The translations under genes and the position numbers were made by a program. A stretch of 64,000 bases of DNA. It comes from Fimbriimonadia bacterium (GTDB lineage Bacteria; Armatimonadota; Fimbriimonadia; Fimbriimonadales; JABRVX01). Shown one piece after another: positions 25,205 through 35,586 of the stretch (the stretch's first letter is position 1; the number at the start of each line of letters is the position of its first letter). Below the pieces are notes generated by a model. The model was given only the letters and a program-made list of their open reading frames with translations, made no database searches and was not told the DNA's origin. Location of the stretch: contig JBGPGO010000009.1 in the NCBI GenBank assembly GCA_041483895.1, forward strand, positions 32,001 through 96,000, given 5' to 3'.

Positions 25205-25795
25205 TTACCGCCGCCATGGTTTCGGCGGAATCTCTGGTAAGTCTATGGATTGCGCTCTTGCGACGTACTCCGAGAATGGCCGAACATACCATGCTAGGCG
25301 TGCGAGAATCTCGGAAAGGGAGCGGCCTGTTTTTGCTGCCATGCTATGAAGCGCGTTCGTAACGGCCGCCGGATCATGGTCGTAGAGGACTTTCAAGTAA
25401 TCGGCCGGGTGCGTCGCGCTGATACCCCAAGGTTTGAGCGCTGCAGGCGTGAAGTCCTTCACGTTAAAGGTCACGATGACTTCCGACTTTGAATGGATCG
25501 CCGCAGCGAGCACGTGGCGGTCTTTGGGGTGATTCGTGCATTCCGGAATGTACTGTTCGAATCCAGTCACCATTGCTTCGGGGAAGAACTCTTTCGCGGC
25601 TTTGATTCTGGAATCCGCAAGGGCATTTTCCCATCCAAGTATATTAATGTAGGTTCGTCGCGTCTCCTCCCAAATCTGCTCCGTCCATTTCGGCAACAGG
25701 AGTCTGGGTTCCTCGGAGAGTCGGAGGAACAGGTCGGAAACGGCCGCTTCCGCGAGCACACAGGCGTCGAGAACGACTGGAAAGTCGGCTCTCAA
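25205..25795 (-). CDS. PIN domain protein (putative toxin)
   Basis: VVLDACVL, HPKDRHVLAAA, IVTFNVKDF; start codon uncertain (TTG 25795 assumed). Confidence 0.85.
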   Translation of the reverse strand: MRADFPVVLDACVLAEAAVSDLFLRLSEEPRLLLPKWTEQIWEETRRTYINILGWENALADSRIKAAKEFFPEAMVTGFEQYIPECTNHPKDRHVLAAAIHSKSEVIVTFNVKDFTPAALKPWGISATHPADYLKVLYDHDPAAVTNALHSMAAKTGRSLSEILARLAWYVRPFSEYVARAQSIDLPEIPPKPWRR

Positions 25796-25799
25796 TATC

Positions 25800-26270
25800 T
25801 CACCGTTCTGATTCGTCGCGTTCCAATGGAGCGAAGCGGTCGTAGACGTCCGCTTCCACAAGTTCTTCCGTCATCCTGTCGAGGCCGGCCTTTCGAACCC
25901 TGCTGCGATCGTGCTGAAACTTGACAAGGTCTTTGAAGAAAACCCTGCGATGTGTCCCGGCGTGGTGAAATGGGATCTTTTCATCTTCCAGCAGACGTAC
26001 GAGATATTGCCGCGAGACGCCGAGGAAGTTAGCGGCTGCCTGAGTCGTAAAAGCCTCATTCTCATGCATCAGGAAGACAGCTTCTCTGCGCTTCATCGCT
26101 TCGACAACGGCGACGAACAGATCGTTCAAAGCTTTGGGGAGCTCGATGGTTTCTCCTTTGGCTCCGATGAGGACGGGCCTGGCCCCTCCTTCCACCACTA
26201 GGAAGAGATCTCTTAATTGCTCGGCCGACATGTCAGACGGGTCAATCCGGATATCAGCGAGTGCGCTCAT
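25800..26270 (-). CDS. Excisionase-family HTH DNA-binding protein (putative antitoxin of the PIN gene)
   Basis: FTTQAAANFLGVSRQYLVRLLE..IPF...GTHRRV. Confidence 0.88.
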   Translation of the reverse strand: MSALADIRIDPSDMSAEQLRDLFLVVEGGARPVLIGAKGETIELPKALNDLFVAVVEAMKRREAVFLMHENEAFTTQAAANFLGVSRQYLVRLLEDEKIPFHHAGTHRRVFFKDLVKFQHDRSRVRKAGLDRMTEELVEADVYDRFAPLERDESER

Positions 26271-26458
26271 GAGACAATTATAGTTCATATTCGCTATAAA
26301 CGCAACTAGTTAGATTACTGGTTATGCCATTGTCGTCGTTAGCACGGCGGCTTCGAACGGCGAAAACGGCAAACTGTCCTAACTTGGCGTGAACTCGAAC
26401 ACAGGGGCGTAAATGAGAGTCAACGCGCTTGACGTTTTTACGCAAGGATGCGTCGTCC

Positions 26459-28003
26459 TTACCACTCGCCGGTCATTCGGAAATTGATAAAGATCCTGTT
26501 CAAATCTGATATGGTAGTAATGTTGTCGCCGTCCAAATCACCATCCGGACCGCCGAAGCCAACGATGACAATATTCAGGTCGTTAAGATCGATCGAGTCA
26601 TTATTGTCAGCGTCCCCTGAGAAGCAAAACGCATTTATCGCGGGACCGGGCGAGACGACTCCAGTTATCAAAGTACTTAGATACCGGTCAGCTTTGAGGC
26701 CGATATCGAACGTCCCTGTTGGCAGAATAAGATTGTATGTGCCGTCGGAACTTGGATCAATCCGCCTCCAGGCAAATGGTTGCGACGAACCGGGTGTTCG
26801 CAGATCGTAGGTAATGGGGGGAAAAGGAGCCTCCGGCACCCTGCTCTCAAATTCGACGTTAATTTTGATTGTGTTCCTGTCTGACGACACCGCAAGGCTG
26901 TGAACGAAACCATCGTCAGCTCCGACGGAAAGACCCGCTGCGGAAAGCCATAGGGGTGAATGGATCGGCCAGCCCCATAGAGGCGAGACCGAATAATCCC
27001 ATCTGTAGTTCCCGTCTGGTCCGTAGCAATAGATCCGATCCAAATTCGTGAGATAGAAGTTTCCGAGGGCGTCGACGACGGGAGTCTGTTGGAATTGGCT
27101 GGTAAAGGTACTCTTAGACCATTCAATGGCTCCAGCCGGCGAGAACCTGATGATCTGGTTCGCGGTATCCTGCAATATGATCAAGGCATCCCCATTTTGC
27201 GCTACAGCCAAGGCTCCTGGGTATCCGTTTTGGAAATGGTACGACCACAAAACATGACCCTGAAGGTCCAAGCAGGCGACATCGTAAAAGCCGCTCGGTT
27301 GATCGACAATCTGACATGTAACGTAAAGCCGGTCTTTGCCGCAAAAGCCCAGGATATTCGGAGACTGCATGAATCCCGGGATATCAACGCTAGTCCATTG
27401 ATTGTCCCCGTCAATTCGAACGAGTTTGCACTTGCCTGGTCCTTTTGCCGACACGACATAAATTGCGCCGTCTCGTCCTTCAACTGGCTGCGAACAGGAA
27501 CCACCAACATCCACAACGGTTTGACCCGTGTAGACAGATAAAAAGTTTACTCCCGTGTCGGATAGGCTGACGAGGACACCGTCGCGCCGCACGATGGCGA
27601 AGTTCCCGTTGATTCGGTCCATTCTAATGCCATCCGCTGAGAATAGAGCCCCGCCGAGCAAGGCGAGACCATTATTCAGTAAGAATGATTTTCCCTGGTA
27701 ACTTTGGCTCGGGTAACCCCATAGAGTTGATCCATCGTTTGCAAAGGCGAACGCTCCCTCTTGCGCAGAAATAAATGTACGACCATCTTCCGTACCGACT
27801 CCAGGGAAATAGATGTAGCCGGCACAGTCGCCCTTCCAAATTTGCGAAGGTGGCTCATTTAGTCGAACAAAATCGTTACGAGACGATCCTTGTGCGTCGT
27901 GGTATGGCATTGGCCATGCCGACGGATCGTATTGGCCGTGAGCAGTTCCAGCCAGGGTGATTAGCACGGCAGCACAGAGTCCAAATTGCGATGGAGCACT
28001 CAT
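26459..28003 (-). CDS. Secreted PQQ-like beta-propeller protein with C-terminal Ig + dockerin-like module
   Basis: Signal peptide, WPMPYHDAQ, repeated DG...W blades, GDADNNDSIDLNDLN...DLDGD..TISDLN. Confidence 0.8.
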   Translation of the reverse strand: MSAPSQFGLCAAVLITLAGTAHGQYDPSAWPMPYHDAQGSSRNDFVRLNEPPSQIWKGDCAGYIYFPGVGTEDGRTFISAQEGAFAFANDGSTLWGYPSQSYQGKSFLLNNGLALLGGALFSADGIRMDRINGNFAIVRRDGVLVSLSDTGVNFLSVYTGQTVVDVGGSCSQPVEGRDGAIYVVSAKGPGKCKLVRIDGDNQWTSVDIPGFMQSPNILGFCGKDRLYVTCQIVDQPSGFYDVACLDLQGHVLWSYHFQNGYPGALAVAQNGDALIILQDTANQIIRFSPAGAIEWSKSTFTSQFQQTPVVDALGNFYLTNLDRIYCYGPDGNYRWDYSVSPLWGWPIHSPLWLSAAGLSVGADDGFVHSLAVSSDRNTIKINVEFESRVPEAPFPPITYDLRTPGSSQPFAWRRIDPSSDGTYNLILPTGTFDIGLKADRYLSTLITGVVSPGPAINAFCFSGDADNNDSIDLNDLNIVIVGFGGPDGDLDGDNITTISDLNRIFINFRMTGEW

Positions 28004-28118: not shown

Positions 28119-28733
28119 TCAGGTGCTAACGAGTTGTCTCAGGCGTTGGCGGACGGCGCGTTTGGCCTCGCGGGCGGCGCCGTCGGAGATGTGCAGGGCA
28201 GAACAGATGGCCGCGTTCACCTCGTCGTCTGGCACAGTGAGGAGGAGGCGCGCGATCAGACGTTGACGCGGGTTGAGGGATGACTGTGCGGCGGTGATGC
28301 GATTCAGTACACGTTCCGTGTCCAACTCCCCAATGAGTTCACCTTCCCAATCTTGGGGGTCTGGCAGATCAAAGGTTCCCGTCTCGGCCATCTCGTCCAC
28401 GCTGACCATCTCGGCCTTCGCGGTCCGCTCCGATTCGCGGCGCAACTTGCTGAGCGCAAGGAAGGAGGCCTGCTTTTGCACTAGCGAGCGGAATTCCGCG
28501 TATGTTCCGGTCTCTTCGAAGCACTGGCACTTCGCCGCGCCGGCCCATACCTTCTCAAACGTCTCGGCAACCAGATCTTCAATCTCGCCCCGCAGCTTGG
28601 GGTAGTTCTGCCAGAGGGTTTTCGCGAGGTGGCTGCGCTCGGCGCGGACCAGTTGATCCATCGCCCGCCCGGCCTCGTCACCCCCGGCCCGTATTTGGGC
28701 CGCTAGTACAGAAAATCTTGTTTCGATTTCCAT
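28119..28733 (-). CDS. Divergent sigma-70 / ECF-like RNA polymerase sigma factor
   Basis: Region-2-like EDLVAETFEKVW and region-4-like SLNPRQRLI...ICSALHISDGAAREAKRAVRQRLR; RBS AAGGGAG. Confidence 0.72.
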   Translation of the reverse strand: MEIETRFSVLAAQIRAGGDEAGRAMDQLVRAERSHLAKTLWQNYPKLRGEIEDLVAETFEKVWAGAAKCQCFEETGTYAEFRSLVQKQASFLALSKLRRESERTAKAEMVSVDEMAETGTFDLPDPQDWEGELIGELDTERVLNRITAAQSSLNPRQRLIARLLLTVPDDEVNAAICSALHISDGAAREAKRAVRQRLRQLVST

Positions 28734-28765
28734 CTTCTTACTCCCTTGTGATGGCGGATGACCGA

Positions 28766-28915
28766 TCAGTCGCCGATCAGGTCGCCATCCCCCTTTCCCT
28801 TGCCGATGGTCAGGTGGGAGATATCGGACTTGCCTTTGTGTGGCTGGGCGAACGATGTGGACACGATGCCAACCCAGACGATTGCGGCAATGAGCAGCAG
28901 TTTCAAGATTTTCAT
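28766..28915 (-). CDS. 49-aa secreted peptide (below the ORF-track length cutoff)
   Basis: MKILKLLLIAAIVWVGIVSTSFA-QPHKGKSDISHLTIGKGKGDGDLIGD. SD GAGGAGG precedes it, its ATG overlaps the TPR gene stop (ATGA), and it has a Sec-type n/h/c signal ending SFA. Confidence 0.78.
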   Translation of the reverse strand: MKILKLLLIAAIVWVGIVSTSFAQPHKGKSDISHLTIGKGKGDGDLIGD

Positions 28916-29628
28916 ATTCGGCCTCCTCGGTACTTCACATGAAGCGCGGTGTACTTTTCCTTCGCGTGTCCTGATAGTATCTCAAAATCGTTGTTTTTGC
29001 CAGCCTCTTTTAGCGTGGCGTTCGATTCTTCGGCCCGGTCCAGCAGGTGGAGAATGCCCCATAGCTCCAGCCTCCAGGCGGTGTTGCCAGGGTCGATCTC
29101 CAGCGCCTTGCGGGTCAATTCGGCTGCCTTTTGCAGCTTCGCTGCTTCAATCTCTTCGACGCCCTGTTGGGTCAAAAGTTCTGCCAGGTTTCGATAAGCC
29201 GGTCCAAGGACGCTGTCGGTCTCCGGGGTTCTGTCCGCGGCGAATTGTTGGATGAGGTTTTCCAGCAAACGCCCGCACTCTTGCCAGCCTTCTCTCGATG
29301 CTTCGTGGAGGTAGGCGAGGGCCAGGTTGCTCTTCGCCGGCGCATAGTCCTCGATGGCCAGGCATTTCTTATAGGCCTCGATGGCTTCCATCATGCGGTC
29401 TTCGCGCACGGCCTGGTTGCCTTCTCGGTAGGCGGCGAGGGCTTCGGGTGATTGGGGAGCGGGGAAGATGCGCTTCCACTCATAATCCGTTTGGGTCTCG
29501 AACCGCTGCTGGAACTCGGCGTCGAGGGGCTCCTCGCCGACGGGCCGCCCTTCGCGGATGGCGAATTGGGCGGTGTAGCTGTCCCTTTTTTTCTCTTTGG
29601 TGGTCGGCATTTCCGGTTCCTCTGGCAC
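28912..29628 (-). CDS. Tetratricopeptide-repeat protein, no signal peptide
   Basis: EAIEAYKKCLAI..YAPAKSNLALAY; AYRNLAELL; KALEIDPGN. Confidence 0.82.
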   Translation of the reverse strand: MPEEPEMPTTKEKKRDSYTAQFAIREGRPVGEEPLDAEFQQRFETQTDYEWKRIFPAPQSPEALAAYREGNQAVREDRMMEAIEAYKKCLAIEDYAPAKSNLALAYLHEASREGWQECGRLLENLIQQFAADRTPETDSVLGPAYRNLAELLTQQGVEEIEAAKLQKAAELTRKALEIDPGNTAWRLELWGILHLLDRAEESNATLKEAGKNNDFEILSGHAKEKYTALHVKYRGGRI

Positions 29629-29805
29629 TTCTGCTCCACTCCTCTTGACGCAGGGTTCTTTCGGGGCGTCAGGGGGATTTTATCTTTTTTTACGTTTTTG
29701 GCGGATTCAGCGCCGGGGTCTGGGTTAGGGGCACGTGGGAAGTGGTCGGTAGGAGTGAACCCCGGCGCATCCACACTTTGGCACGCTGACCCTCGGCTCC
29801 AGAGT

Positions 29806-29837
29806 GAAGCCCCGAACCCTAGGGTTCGGGGCTTTTT
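29806..29837. terminator. Strong hairpin, probable terminator downstream of the GYD gene
   Basis: AAGCCCCGAACCC-TA-GGGTTCGGGGCTT followed by a T run. Confidence 0.6.
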
Positions 29838-29847
29838 CGAATCGTAA

Positions 29848-30138
29848 CTACAAATCAGCAATCATTTTAGATACTTCCGCGCCGTCGAATGCGCGGAGGG
29901 TTTTCGTCCGAACGTTGCCTTGCGCCGCAACGCTGGCAACCGCTTTCATGGCTGCCTCCTCATTGGGCGCGCTGATGATAGTGATAACGTCGTACTCGCC
30001 CATCGTCCAAAGCAAGGTTTCAACCTTTGCGCCGTATTTGGCTACGGCCCTGGTGAAGTCTTCGGCCCGCTTGACGGTATCTTTGATGTTCTTAACTCCC
30101 TGATCGGTCCAATTGACCAACGTGACGTATTTCGCCAT
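29848..30138 (-). CDS. GYD domain protein
   Basis: MAKYVTLVNWTDQGVKNIK...WTMGEYD...GNVRTKTLRAF. Confidence 0.9.
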   Translation of the reverse strand: MAKYVTLVNWTDQGVKNIKDTVKRAEDFTRAVAKYGAKVETLLWTMGEYDVITIISAPNEEAAMKAVASVAAQGNVRTKTLRAFDGAEVSKMIADL

Positions 30139-31591
30139 GGTAGGCCTCCTTTGATTGGTGCTTCGACGGCGTTTCCTTCCATCCTGCCAGTTTGAGGGCG
30201 ATATAGACCAGGCCGGCGGAGGAGGCGTAGTTGGCGTTGACCTGCCGTTTGGTGTCGGGGTTGATCCATTCGAAGGGCGCGCCTTGCTCGCGATGGGTGC
30301 GGATGTGGGCGATGTATTCCGACAACAGCTTTTCCGCCGCCTTGCGATCGACTTTTGATAGGGCAACGATCAGCCAGCCGGTCGGCGTCGCCCAATATCC
30401 GCCATTCTGATATTCGTCCTTGCCCGAGCTCGATCGCTCCCAATACTCGCCGCGTGGGAGATGCCGCACCTGGCCCTCTTGCACAATGGCTCCGCTGGTG
30501 TACAGCGCCAATAGATGCCGGCTGACCGCGAGGGATTCTTTTTTCGGAAGCACGTTGAGGAAGACCGCGAACGCCGACGCCCAGATGTCGTCCTGCCGAC
30601 CTAGATCTGTGGCGGAGATCATCATCGCCTCGCCGCTTTTCGTCGGCTGATAGAATGTCTTGACGATGCTCTTCTGGATCGTTTTGGCGATTGCTCGAAA
30701 TTTCGATGGGCGGTGGGATTCTTCCGATAGCTCCGCAAGGCGCACGGCCGCCTGCCAGCGCAACAGCGACGGCATGAGACATAGCCCCGATTTCCGGACT
30801 GAATCGCAGAATCCCCAATCCACCCGCCACTCAGTCTTGTCACACTGTACCAATCCTGTCGCCGGATCGGAGGCGACCGAATCAAATGCTTTCTCACACA
30901 CATCGTACAGATGCTGTTCGCCCCATCCAGTTTTCACGCTGCTCCTATAGAACGTTGTATCATGAGACAAGCGGTACTGCTCATACACCATCTGGATGAA
31001 ATAGTATGCGTCGTCTGCCGGCGGCAGAATGCCATAGCTCCCCACGCCTTGATCCACGTATGCGCCGGGATACCAGCATGCCTCGCCCTTAAGTGTGATA
31101 TGGTCGGGGATGCAGTATGCCGGTATGCGCAGACCATGATCGAACGAAAGCCCTTTCGGGCCGGGCTGGGTGGCCGCGACGACGCGAATCCAACCCTCGA
31201 CCTCCTTTTGCGGCACGAGGTCCGCGCCGAGCATCATGGCCGCGTCGCGGATCCAAAAGGCGGGGTAGTAGTTCCGGGTCCCTCCGGGAACGCGTAGCGC
31301 GTACCCCGTCGTGTTGCGGCCAGTCCCCGCGATTTCCGCCCCCGCCTCTACCATTGCCGAATCCACAACTTCGTGGGCGATGCGGTGGAGATAGTCGAGA
31401 TCGGAATCGATCCTCGCCGGCGAAATCTTATCGCGGTTAGAGGCGGCGTGAAGCATGCATGCGTGGACCGTAACCATGAATAACACGTATCGTGTGGCAG
31501 ACTGGCGCAGCGAGCAAGAATGTGACGCGATCAGCTTTGGAAGTTCGTCGCTTTTGTTCGGAAGCAAGTCAAGCATCTCCGGATGATTCAT
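30092..31591 (-). CDS. Six-hairpin glycosidase-like protein (start uncertain)
   Basis: YPAFWIRDAAM, WGFCDSV, YQNGGYWATP, PFEW; (alpha/alpha)6 glycosidase-type motifs. Confidence 0.7.
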   Translation of the reverse strand: MNHPEMLDLLPNKSDELPKLIASHSCSLRQSATRYVLFMVTVHACMLHAASNRDKISPARIDSDLDYLHRIAHEVVDSAMVEAGAEIAGTGRNTTGYALRVPGGTRNYYPAFWIRDAAMMLGADLVPQKEVEGWIRVVAATQPGPKGLSFDHGLRIPAYCIPDHITLKGEACWYPGAYVDQGVGSYGILPPADDAYYFIQMVYEQYRLSHDTTFYRSSVKTGWGEQHLYDVCEKAFDSVASDPATGLVQCDKTEWRVDWGFCDSVRKSGLCLMPSLLRWQAAVRLAELSEESHRPSKFRAIAKTIQKSIVKTFYQPTKSGEAMMISATDLGRQDDIWASAFAVFLNVLPKKESLAVSRHLLALYTSGAIVQEGQVRHLPRGEYWERSSSGKDEYQNGGYWATPTGWLIVALSKVDRKAAEKLLSEYIAHIRTHREQGAPFEWINPDTKRQVNANYASSAGLVYIALKLAGWKETPSKHQSKEAYHGEIRHVGQLDRSGS

Positions 31592-32048
31592 GGCCGAACT
31601 GCCGCATCATTTCGACCAGATCATCAGACATGTGGAAACTTGTCTTACGCAATTTCGTCAGTGCATCTGGAAAGTCGATGAGCCGTTGCTGGCCGGCGAT
31701 TCTGAGGACGCCGAGTGTGCCGATTACCTTTATCCCTTGCCGCTCGGCTACCGCCCTGGCGGCGAGCTCATCAACGATAAGACCTACGCCGAGATCAATT
31801 GCCAATGCGATAGCTGCCGCTTCGCCGGCGCCAAGGGCCGGAAATCTCGATGCATCTCCCTCTCGCACGTCAATCCAATCAGGAAGTTTCGATACCCACA
31901 CCTGAACCGCCTGTGGAGTCCGTGGATGCGAAAGCTCCGTAATCACTTGTGTTGGTACCACAATTGAACCGAAGATCGAGTGCAAAAGCCCGATGAAGTC
32001 AATTTCGACAAGATAACGAAGAGGAGAGGTATCTGAAACAATGATCAC
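31569..32048 (-). CDS. DUF3368 family PIN-domain protein (putative toxin)
   Basis: IVSDTSPL, LGAGEAAAIALA, VDELAAR..A...GIKVIGTLGVL. Confidence 0.9.
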   Translation of the reverse strand: MIIVSDTSPLRYLVEIDFIGLLHSIFGSIVVPTQVITELSHPRTPQAVQVWVSKLPDWIDVREGDASRFPALGAGEAAAIALAIDLGVGLIVDELAARAVAERQGIKVIGTLGVLRIAGQQRLIDFPDALTKLRKTSFHMSDDLVEMMRQFGHESSGDA

Positions 32049-32323
32049 CGATCGATCAATTCCTCATAACTCTTGCGATCTTGTTCGAGCATCTCCGGCG
32101 TGTATTCCTCGATTAGGCCGGAACGCGCAAAGAATTCGTCGCGATCGAGTTCGCCGTCAATACCCAATAGCTCGGCAGCCTTTCGCCGAGAAATCAGGCC
32201 TTCCCGCACGGCTTCGATGACCAATGCTTCAGAGGCCCACTGAGGCAAATTGGCTTCTCCCCGCTGCTTTGCAATCAGTTTGCGGAATTCTTCTGGAACC
32301 TCGACAGGAATAACGGTATTCAT
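32045..32323 (-). CDS. UPF0175 family protein (putative antitoxin)
   Basis: EAVREGLISRRKAAELLGI; its stop overlaps the start of the PIN gene. Confidence 0.82.
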   Translation of the reverse strand: MNTVIPVEVPEEFRKLIAKQRGEANLPQWASEALVIEAVREGLISRRKAAELLGIDGELDRDEFFARSGLIEEYTPEMLEQDRKSYEELIDR

Positions 32324-32348
32324 GGCTTCTTCAATCGACCACAGTGTA

Positions 32349-33521
<1,173 letters not shown>

Positions 33522-33633: not shown

Positions 33634-35586
33634 ATGCGAACGAATGGATTATCACGCACCCTGATCCAGTCGGCAATCGTCGCCGTCGCCATGACGGCGT
33701 TCCAGGCGTCTGGCCAGAGAGCCGATTACCAATCCGAAACTGCCACGTTACGCGTTCCGTTCCTATTGGATACAACCGAAGCCATGCTCGCGAGGGACCG
33801 TCTCATGCCGCCTCCGAATGGCATCCAGGTGATTCGGAACATTTTCCAAATCACGGAGGACGAGCGCGAGGGTAAGGACGGAGGAAAGAATCCGTTCCAG
33901 GAAATCATCCCCGGCAAATATTTTCCGGGACCGAGCGAGAACGGCGGAACTCCGGGGGATCCAAATATGGCGGCCGGCCCGAACCACGTCATCGCATGCA
34001 TCAATGGTTCGATTCGATTCTATACCAAGGCCGGAGGCCTGACCTTTAGCGTGAATCCAGCGTCATTCTTCTCCGGACTCGGCGTCAGCCTCTGCTGCGA
34101 TTGCCGATGCTTCTATGATCCGGGCTCGAAGCGATTCTTTATCATGTACTTGGGGTTCGACGGCACCAACCACAGCTACTACGAGGTCGCCGTTTCGGAC
34201 GATGACAATCCTAACGGGACCTGGGCGAAATGGGTGCTGAACTCCAGCATGAACGGAACAACGCTAAGTAACTTTTGGACCGACTATCCTGGGTTTGGAT
34301 ACACTTCCGACACGCTGATATGGACCGGAAACATGTTCCCGATTTCCGGAAGCGGCAACTATGGCAAGATTCGCATTGCGGGAAAGCAGCAGTTCCTGGA
34401 CGGCTCACCCACAATAACATATACCGACTTTTGGAACTTTACAAACCCCGCCGGTGGCACAGCGTTCAGCCTCCAACCGGGAAGAACCACGGGCGCCGCG
34501 AATGTGCCCGTTGTGGTGAACGTGAGCGGCACCAATCGGGTGAATGTATTTGCCATCCAGAACCCATTGACAGCGCCCGCCCTTGTCAAGAAGTCCGTCA
34601 CTGTCTCATCGTTCGGCGGTCCAAGCGGCGGTAAGCAGCTGGGCACGACAACCAAGATCGACATGTTGGACAGTCGTGTATATGATGTCAATGTGCGCGA
34701 CAACATGATTCTCGTTACGCATAATATTTCAGGCGGCGCAGGCAGTCGCGTTCGATGGTATGAGTTGGATGGCAGCAACCTGCCGACAAGCGTTACCCTT
34801 GTGCAGCAAGGCAATATCGAGGACCCATCGTACTTCACCGGCTATGGATCGCTAAATAAGAACATGTACGGCACGATCGGTACCGGCCTCACTCGTACCA
34901 GCGCGACGGAGCACGTCGGCGTGTATTACACGGGACGCGAAGCCGGCGACGCACCGGGCACCATGAAGCCGATGACGCTCAAGCGCATCGGTGTCGCATA
35001 CAACGGCGAGAACAGCGGCGCAACCTCCCGCTGGGGCGACTACTGTGGCGGGGCTCTCGACCCGGATGATTTCACCTTCTGGGCGATCGGGATGGTGCCG
35101 GTATCCTCCGGCGCTTGGGGAACGGAAATCTACGCCTATACAATCGGAACCCCGGCGAACTTGGCCGGCAACATCCATTTGGATAGCTTTGTGGGCAGTA
35201 TCATCGGACAGGCTGCAACGCTAGAGTTTCGAAGCCCCGGAACCACCAACGTTTTGCATAGCTATCCGATTTCATTGAACGCCGGCGGTCTTTACATCAT
35301 CCCGGCGGTCGCCGTGGGAACGTTCGATCTCGCCATAAAGTTTTCGCATTGGCTCCGAACGATTCTGCCCTCGGTCACCTTCGCCCTTGGCGACAATTCG
35401 GTTGATTTCGATACCGCTAACGGTGACGCCGACGGCGACAACGTGATCGATTTGTTCGACGTCAACGCTGTTTTTGTGGTATTCGATTCGACGGACCCAT
35501 CCGGAGATCTGAATGGAGACAAAGCTGTCAATCTGGACGACCTGAATATCGCCCTAACAAGATTCGGCATGGCTGGACCGCCCTAG
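33634..35586 (+). CDS. Secreted beta-rich protein with C-terminal Ig + dockerin-like module
   Basis: Signal peptide; PGDPNMAAGPNH, WTDYPGFG, RWGDY; tail KFSHWLR...NGDADGDNVIDLFD...DLNGD..VNLDDLN. Confidence 0.8.
   Translation: MRTNGLSRTLIQSAIVAVAMTAFQASGQRADYQSETATLRVPFLLDTTEAMLARDRLMPPPNGIQVIRNIFQITEDEREGKDGGKNPFQEIIPGKYFPGPSENGGTPGDPNMAAGPNHVIACINGSIRFYTKAGGLTFSVNPASFFSGLGVSLCCDCRCFYDPGSKRFFIMYLGFDGTNHSYYEVAVSDDDNPNGTWAKWVLNSSMNGTTLSNFWTDYPGFGYTSDTLIWTGNMFPISGSGNYGKIRIAGKQQFLDGSPTITYTDFWNFTNPAGGTAFSLQPGRTTGAANVPVVVNVSGTNRVNVFAIQNPLTAPALVKKSVTVSSFGGPSGGKQLGTTTKIDMLDSRVYDVNVRDNMILVTHNISGGAGSRVRWYELDGSNLPTSVTLVQQGNIEDPSYFTGYGSLNKNMYGTIGTGLTRTSATEHVGVYYTGREAGDAPGTMKPMTLKRIGVAYNGENSGATSRWGDYCGGALDPDDFTFWAIGMVPVSSGAWGTEIYAYTIGTPANLAGNIHLDSFVGSIIGQAATLEFRSPGTTNVLHSYPISLNAGGLYIIPAVAVGTFDLAIKFSHWLRTILPSVTFALGDNSVDFDTANGDADGDNVIDLFDVNAVFVVFDSTDPSGDLNGDKAVNLDDLNIALTRFGMAGPP

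Follow-up and report, generated by a model that had tools for sequence, protein, structure and literature searches.

Can a cytoplasmic receptor, an exported peptide and a sigma factor form one signalling circuit in a bacterium with an outer membrane? The question is raised by a 64,000-nucleotide (nt) stretch of contig JBGPGO010000009.1 from a Fimbriimonadia sediment bacterium of the phylum Armatimonadota (contig positions 32,001 to 96,000; hereafter the window, whose own numbering is used below). On its minus strand lie a gene for a tetratricopeptide repeat (TPR) protein, a 49-codon open reading frame (ORF) for a putative secreted pro-peptide, and a gene for a predicted sigma factor of the extracytoplasmic function (ECF) class. 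Cytoplasmic peptide-receptor signalling has been described as a trait of Bacillota (PMC10075063). We propose, with a probability of about 0.47, that the cassette is a self-inducing peptide switch resembling Rap-Phr, in which the TPR protein would be an anti-sigma factor released by the peptide.

A small conserved gene behind the TPR gene

The three genes run in the same direction, in the order and at the positions given in a preliminary description of the locus (Table 1). That description also called the sigma gene divergent, which holds for its sequence, below the family cut-off, and not for its orientation, which is that of the TPR and peptide genes. An ATGA overlap (28912-28915) joins the TPR stop codon to the peptide ATG, the Shine-Dalgarno (SD) position of the peptide gene reads TAAGGAGG in relatives, and a 32-nt gap separates the peptide gene from the sigma ATG. 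The TPR and peptide genes are translationally coupled.

The 49-codon ORF had been put forward as a gene, and it is a real gene under purifying selection. With a hexamer model trained on this genome, its coding score was +19.5 when read as the peptide and -59 and -23 in the two alternative frames, which makes it the highest among the 20 small ORFs with an SD sequence and a signal-like N-terminus found among 3450 small intergenic ORFs. DNA was available for four distinct related loci, all close kin (L002, L003, L006 and L007; L016 duplicates one of them and was not counted). Among these four, the proportion of synonymous differences (pS) in the peptide gene was 0.16-0.32, compared with 0.02-0.07 for nonsynonymous differences (pN), and over the last seven codons comparison with the window gave pS 0.54 and pN 0.09. 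In each of the four loci, as in the window, the TPR gene is followed at once by the peptide gene, one locus having a 147-nt insertion between them, and the sigma gene comes next in all three related loci that reach that far, so that the expected conservation of a downstream small signal-peptide ORF and a sigma gene was found. A profile search with the peptide returned seven proteins from 39 candidates, three more divergent (E values of 0.08-1.0). Two of these three lie on contigs equal in length to contigs of TPR homologues. One protein, P0021, has a mis-called N-terminal extension that agrees with the +1 reading frame at the C-terminal end of just one of the ten TPR proteins, P0003. We counted both peptides as support for joint occurrence.

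All seven peptide homologues have a signal-like N-terminus with a basic n-region and a hydrophobic core, in which A23 and P25 are invariant, followed by a variable middle. The signal peptide proposed for the ORF is upheld by this anatomy of n-, h- and c-regions and by a proxy, in that 15 of 17 weak profile matches in other genomes begin within 8 amino acids (aa) of a Met at a protein N-terminus, nearly all in longer proteins. The homologues also share a C-terminal tail, K.K.DGD[IL]IG[DG], with K39, K41, D43, G44, D45, I47 and G48 invariant; one homologue carries five extra residues after the motif, and some end in Gly-Gly. The mature peptide had been expected to be hypervariable. Instead, the tail is near-invariant across the seven homologues and only the middle varies, which argues against strain-specific pherotypes; a hypervariable pherotype was rejected for the predicted binding tail. 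A precursor of a ribosomally synthesized and post-translationally modified peptide was set aside, no modifying-enzyme-like gene being conserved beside the peptide gene.

Predicted complex of the TPR protein and the peptide tail

The window's TPR protein passes the cut-off of Pfam family TPR_19 (26.1 versus 25), and no helix-turn-helix (HTH) family appeared in its Pfam scan, in agreement with the cytoplasmic, HTH-less TPR protein described before. Its structural model has a predicted local distance difference test score (pLDDT) of 83, with residues 1-44 mostly below 50 and then a helical domain of the TPR type. The N-terminal arm contains no Cys in the window and is conserved in the family, 16 of the 32 residues from 9 to 40 being invariant. 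A word search returned ten TPR proteins, nine of them homologues at 58-63%, which are 247-253 aa long versus 232-238 aa in the window. The structural matches of the model are generic TPR proteins with Z scores up to 17.9, below which come PlcR (Z 14.1, root-mean-square deviation 3.4, 168 residues aligned, rank 31) and Rap of pLS20 (Z 13.8, deviation 2.6, 167 aligned, rank 40), and no known RRNPP receptor is among the 60 of 91 PDB sequence matches listed. A profile search of 1.84 billion representatives returned one TPR family cluster (E 1e-134) and then generic TPR matches only, from 7e-13; the family forms one 50% cluster with no close outgroup. Two weak TPR matches in related genomes have no signal-like small ORF beside them, and the TPR and sigma profiles are unrelated to each other.

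Co-folding of the TPR protein with peptide residues 20-49, using TPR alignment A1 and peptide alignment A4, gave scores of 0.89, 0.89 and 0.86, compared with 0.00-0.01 for three controls. The mark applied is reached by 116 of 157 solved pairs and by 2 of 215 mismatched pairs. Contacts shared between runs amount to at least 46%, and the peptide has a pLDDT of about 42-44. Only residues 41-49 of the peptide, the conserved tail, lie in the confident interface, where 20 of 31 TPR residues are invariant; in the rest of the TPR protein the figure is 66 of 201 (p = 8e-4). Among them are N65, N95 and N141, which contact peptide residues 45-48 in the model alone; RNPP receptors hold peptide backbones via asparagines (PMC3763537). 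Residues 41-49 of the arm help to line the predicted pocket, which would offer a route for allostery. Co-folding had been suggested as a check on the locus, and it places the tail in the TPR groove (0.89 versus 0.01 for the best control), a prediction that supports binding and does not demonstrate it.

A divergent ECF sigma factor and its candidate promoter

By its modelled structure, the third gene encodes an ECF-fold sigma factor that is divergent in sequence. Its score with the hidden Markov model TIGR02937 is below the cut-off (25.7 versus 42.9, E 7e-6), and it has no PDB sequence match. A Foldseek search with its model found E. coli sigmaE (1or7) as the best match (E 3.4e-4), followed by M. 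tuberculosis ECF complexes; the matches include sigmaE, SigH, SigL and SigW, and the 204 residues comprise sigma2 and sigma4 domains only. An Atlas feature search points to sigma-like clusters as well. The earlier sigma-70-like assignment is thus borne out by fold, though not by the family threshold. The protein keeps the acidic motif of region 2.2 (EIED/DVED) and lacks the Trp that is usual in region 2.3. A word search returned six sigma proteins (five homologues at 56-62%), whose alignment (A2) has an invariant GAAREAKRAVR helix in region 4. The family also has an invariant CxC (C69 and C71) in the loop after region 2.2, possibly a redox or metal input.

A bipartite motif, CCTGACG-N16-CGTC[AT]A, stands just before the SD sequence of the TPR gene in the window and in all four related loci, with the spacer fixed at 16 nt in length and variable in sequence, and it is kept although the upstream gene differs (a GYD gene in the window, a hybrid kinase in the relatives). 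The combination of a CGTC -10 element and a 16-nt spacer matches a pattern of ECF promoters; ECF sigma factors usually autoregulate and are co-transcribed with an anti-sigma factor (PMC3426412). The sole site in a sigma-70 promoter scan precedes the gene downstream of the cassette. A second in-frame TPR start (ATG or GTG), 6-8 codons in, is kept in all five loci (29610 and 29628 in the window); with the motif only some 17 nt ahead of the first start, transcripts made by the sigma factor may be translated from the second, giving a shorter arm.

Three genomes of the window's family, from two genera, bear the cassette: G000, which holds the one analysed here, G001 and G002. Perfect motif sites lie at most 120 nt upstream of 4 of the 3360 called genes of G000, versus 0-1 for other spacers of 12-20 nt; the cassette, from which the motif was derived, accounts for one of these genes. 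Of 28 sigma-like loci listed for G000, 27 were scored, and among them the cassette alone has a site with fewer than two mismatches, a perfect one. Two of the other three perfect sites belong to genes unlinked to the cassette and recur, with different spacers, before the orthologous genes in the other genus, and the fourth gene was not found in five genomes. The first of the recurring pair, gene A, encodes 146 aa, opens an operon with DUF6754 and a Poly_export lipoprotein, and has an orthologue in every one of the 41 genomes of the order that were searched. Among the 30 loci returned, a spacer-16 site with at most one mismatch lies 29-30 nt upstream of gene A in all three family genomes and in none of the 27 others; two loci from other families have a one-mismatch site at spacer 15, 66-100 nt away. 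Gene B, for which there was no Pfam or NCBIfam match, was matched in 17 of 41 genomes. It has perfect sites in G000, where the copy is fully palindromic, and in G002, the two family loci that could be scored (in G001 a contig end truncates the locus, and one locus gave no match), whereas none of 13 weaker homologues has the motif. Omitting both negative rows from genome G036 (L072 and L096), which is marked as unpublished, changes nothing. The motif at the cassette, gene A and gene B suggests autoregulation and a small envelope regulon, and we infer that the sigma factor reads CTGACG-N16-CGTC[AT].

A looser form of the pattern yielded 27 and 30 sites in G001 and G002 and only one further weak candidate. 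CTGACG-N16-CGTCC stands before a lipoprotein-like gene in G001 and G002 (L130 and L144), with different spacers, while the G000 counterpart (G000:C13:226-681) has a three-mismatch site; this gene may be a fourth regulon member. Another ECF-like motif, GTAACG-N15-CGT, occurs in a looser form before three G000 genes.

Proposed circuit and alternatives

In the circuit that we propose, the pro-peptide would be exported via Sec, and the exported 26-aa peptide would be trimmed outside and re-imported by Opp, after which its conserved tail is predicted to dock in the TPR groove. The TPR protein would hold the neighbouring ECF sigma factor inactive via its conserved N-terminal arm; binding of the tail would move the arm and free the sigma factor, which would transcribe the cassette itself and a few cell-envelope genes. 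The host has BamA and LpxC and hence an outer membrane, in line with the diderm lineage suggested before, and each of the three family genomes has one family-5 peptide-binding protein of the Opp type, followed in G000 by two genes that read as permease-like. More tentatively, we see here a possible RRNPP-logic quorum-sensing circuit in a diderm outside Bacillota, with a peptide-released TPR anti-sigma factor that lacks a known anti-sigma domain and a sigma factor as output; jointly with this, and with the same reserve, the ECF sigma factor may feed back on the cassette and activate polysaccharide-export and surface genes.

Several points weigh against the peptide-released switch. It needs a 26-aa peptide to be trimmed and to cross the inner membrane again, and no protease was identified; the invariant tail offers little strain specificity; and the Pfam and NCBIfam searches found no known anti-sigma domain (zinc-binding ZAS or other) in the TPR protein. 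The co-fold may owe its score to a resemblance, of a general kind, to solved TPR-peptide complexes, no other TPR protein was among the controls, and the peptide's own pLDDT is low. As the model was given the alignments, pocket conservation and co-fold are not independent of each other. Across the genome the motif shows no enrichment at spacer 16: with up to two mismatches it precedes 17 G000 genes, where other spacers give 4-17, and in G001 and G002 its counts are no higher than those of reversed controls. Gene B homologues of other families (L095, L097 and L101) instead carry GTAACG-N15-CGT 12-20 nt upstream, the genome has about 28 sigma-like loci, and, as motif and cassette share one clade of two genera, their co-occurrence amounts to one evolutionary event.

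The same tail conservation would suit a cell-autonomous monitor better than a pherotype. Unexported pre-peptide, or peptide kept in the periplasm and recycled, would bind the TPR protein and set the sigma factor, sensing export or envelope integrity, a scheme in keeping with a diderm host that hinders exchange between cells, with candidate targets that are envelope or secreted proteins and with the extra residues after the motif in one homologue. We consider it unlikely, though the strongest of the alternatives: the layout matches RRNPP pairs as defined in PMC10075063, an Opp-type importer is present in all three family genomes, and the conserved Pro at +2 and the variable spacer may suit stepwise extracellular trimming. 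The sign of the circuit could also be reversed, with the TPR protein assisting a deviant sigma factor as co-activator or chaperone and the peptide turning the circuit off. Peptides exert negative feedback in AimR-AimP. With family scores under the cut-offs and no Trp at the usual place, the sigma factor might need a helper, and the TPR protein has no known anti-sigma domain; however, the sigma factor keeps its region-2.2 motif and both domains, and co-transcribed ECF partners are typically anti-sigma factors (PMC3426412), which leaves this reading doubtful.

The TPR protein and the peptide may instead act on another protein, such as a response regulator, with the sigma factor only a co-transcribed neighbour or the motif an operator of another dimeric factor. 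An ORF that reads as a hybrid histidine kinase precedes the TPR gene in four of four relatives, the motif is a near-inverted repeat, and the genome has many other sigma factors. In the window, however, the gene upstream is not a hybrid kinase, the best kinase match in the genome is at 29%, the sigma factor equals the TPR protein in family restriction and in conservation, and the cassette alone among the sigma loci scored has a perfect site; we regard this account as improbable. TPR grooves bind many C-terminal tails, and generic TPR proteins outrank PlcR and Rap here, so the small ORF could encode a secreted product unrelated to the TPR protein (structural, antimicrobial or decaying, some homologues ending in Gly-Gly), its predicted binding being a generic artefact. 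This is made very improbable by the translational coupling of the two genes, their strict adjacency and shared distribution, and by a conservation that centres on just those residues that dock in the model.

Comparison with known peptide and sigma systems

RRNPP pairs have been delimited by a pro-peptide of 10-100 aa, a Sec signal, a receptor of about 250-500 aa, TPRs and neighbouring genes (PMC10075063). Four of these five traits are found in the cassette, whose pro-peptide homologues are 46-54 aa as called, and receptor length narrowly misses the stated range at 232-238 aa in the window and is borderline at 247-253 aa in the homologues. The host is an armatimonadote rather than a member of Bacillota or one of their mobile elements, and none of five viral-contig candidates was confirmed as carrying a cassette relative. 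From its sequences, the cassette would work like an RRNPP pair, and we do not count it as a member; no clear descent from known receptors is apparent. The earlier proposal of an analogous module in a diderm is partly supported, by the conserved gene order, the signal-bearing small ORF, the predicted complex, the diderm host, the ECF fold and the likely autoregulatory promoter; it is corrected as to the hypervariable mature peptide, and a role of the TPR protein as anti-sigma factor or co-activator would remain conjecture.

Like Rap-Phr, the cassette has a cytoplasmic TPR protein that lacks an HTH and, immediately after its gene, a small gene for a Sec pro-peptide; the C-terminal tail is predicted in the groove, and control would pass through protein-protein contact (Rap layout, PMC3763537). 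The receptor here is shorter (232-253 aa), has a conserved but disordered arm where Rap has a three-helix bundle, shows no sequence-level link to Rap (structural rank 40, Z 13.8), and is found in a diderm host with a co-encoded ECF sigma factor as its likely target. The Asn-lined TPR pocket of the model resembles that of NprR-NprX and PlcR-PapR, and the NprX heptapeptide SKPDIVG (PMC3763537) ends in D-hydrophobic-hydrophobic-G like DLIG/DIIG here, a likeness of four residues that may be convergent. NprR and PlcR, however, carry an HTH and bind DNA, whereas Pfam detected none in the cassette's TPR protein, and the PlcR match (Z 14.1, rank 31) ranks below generic TPR proteins.

Among ECF groups, ECF41 shares the CGTC -10 element with a 16-nt spacer, the sigma2-sigma4 fold and likely autoregulation (PMC3426412). 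TPRs occur as C-terminal extensions in ECF42 and within an anti-sigma factor in ECF267 (10.1101/2019.12.11.873521), and the portion of that account consulted names no exported peptide of this kind. The cassette differs from these in its -35 element, CTGACG, in a stand-alone soluble TPR protein with no zinc finger or known anti-sigma domain, and in a dedicated exported-peptide gene. DdvA-DdvS of Myxococcus xanthus likewise places an ECF sigma factor under an anti-sigma factor (PMC11506125), but DdvA is transmembrane, whereas the TPR protein has no membrane segment and has an adjacent peptide gene. Literature searches, mainly of open papers, found no published peptide-TPR-sigma cassette; the supplements of ECF and RRNPP surveys, outside that scope, may bear on this.

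If the proposed reading is true, peptide-receptor signalling extends to a diderm phylum, and a new type joins the soluble anti-sigma factors, which are thought to be under-detected (10.1101/2019.12.11.873521). The cassette is compact and each of its parts is defined (receptor, ligand tail, sigma factor, promoter and three candidate targets), so that the circuit could be rebuilt in a laboratory host, peptide control of the sigma factor would be directly testable, and an orthogonal peptide-inducible switch might result. The narrow known range, about ten receptor sequences, limits this significance.

Distribution and genomic context

The cassette is confined to one Armatimonadota family. Strong TPR matches occur only in the three family genomes among 41 related genomes. 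A search of 228 genomes of the order gave peptide matches of full length and sigma matches of high score in the same three alone. No strong sigma match was found in 400 genomes of the phylum; seven weak ones have no TPR-peptide neighbours, and most adjoin ORFs that read as anti-sigma-like. There is no second copy in the host genome. No RNA data set was listed as containing the cassette, and four DNA sequencing runs covered it in fragments. A gene that reads as trpB-like lies upstream in the window and in G001, and this, with no viral relative found, fits a stable chromosomal locus. A stem-loop upstream (Table 1) likely insulates the cassette from read-through, a role assigned from its position; it was not among the matches of a terminator scan.

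Table 1 Coordinates of the cassette, its elements and the candidate regulon (window positions unless a genome and contig are given)
Feature	Position	Strand	Details
TPR gene	28912..29628	minus	start GTG 29628, 238 aa; in-frame ATG 29610 gives 232 aa
Pro-peptide gene, 49 aa	28766..28915	minus	49 codons
Predicted Sec signal peptide	28847..28915	minus	residues 1-23, cleavage SFA/QP
C-terminal KGDGDLIGD	28769..28795	minus	residues 41-49, predicted active signal
ECF-type sigma-like gene	28119..28733	minus	204 aa
SD sequence GAGGAGG of peptide gene	28922..28928	minus	within final TPR codons, 6 nt before peptide ATG
Motif CCTGACG-N16-CGTC[AT]A	29645..29673	minus	predicted ECF promoter of cassette; near-palindrome TGACG...CGTCA
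Stem-loop, 12 bp	29807..29834	minus	just after upstream GYD gene; RNA fold of 29780-29850, -29.2 kcal/mol for segment
Gene A operon	G000:C11:20787-25952		146-aa, 106-aa, DUF6754, Poly_export lipoprotein, two membrane-like ORFs
Gene B	G000:C1:478567-480417		616 aa, Gly-rich, signal-like N-terminus, long Gly/Ser repeats, Trp/Tyr-rich C-terminal domain

The 147-nt insertion of L003, between the TPR stop and the peptide start (L018 12952-13098), forms a hairpin between duplicated TAAGGAG and leaves the peptide SD sequence intact. It looks like a miniature inverted-repeat transposable element or an element of the repetitive extragenic palindromic type; relatives of it lie just 3' of the sigma gene in L017 and L018, and none was found in G000.

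Two signal-bearing proteins in the window (26459-28003 and 33634-35586) each end in a paired D-x-D-G-D repeat domain, which we take to resemble a dockerin-like calcium-binding tail. The gene at 26459-28003 follows the cassette, though relatives do not keep it at that place, and its start is overlapped by a consensus-like sigma-70 site. Two gene pairs of the PIN-domain type flank the region, one at 25205-26288 (HTH_17 and PIN_3 by Pfam) and one, by sequence reading, at 31569-32542. A few kb downstream of the cassette in G001 (L017 17920-19841), ORFs give the impression of a P-loop ATPase defence module.

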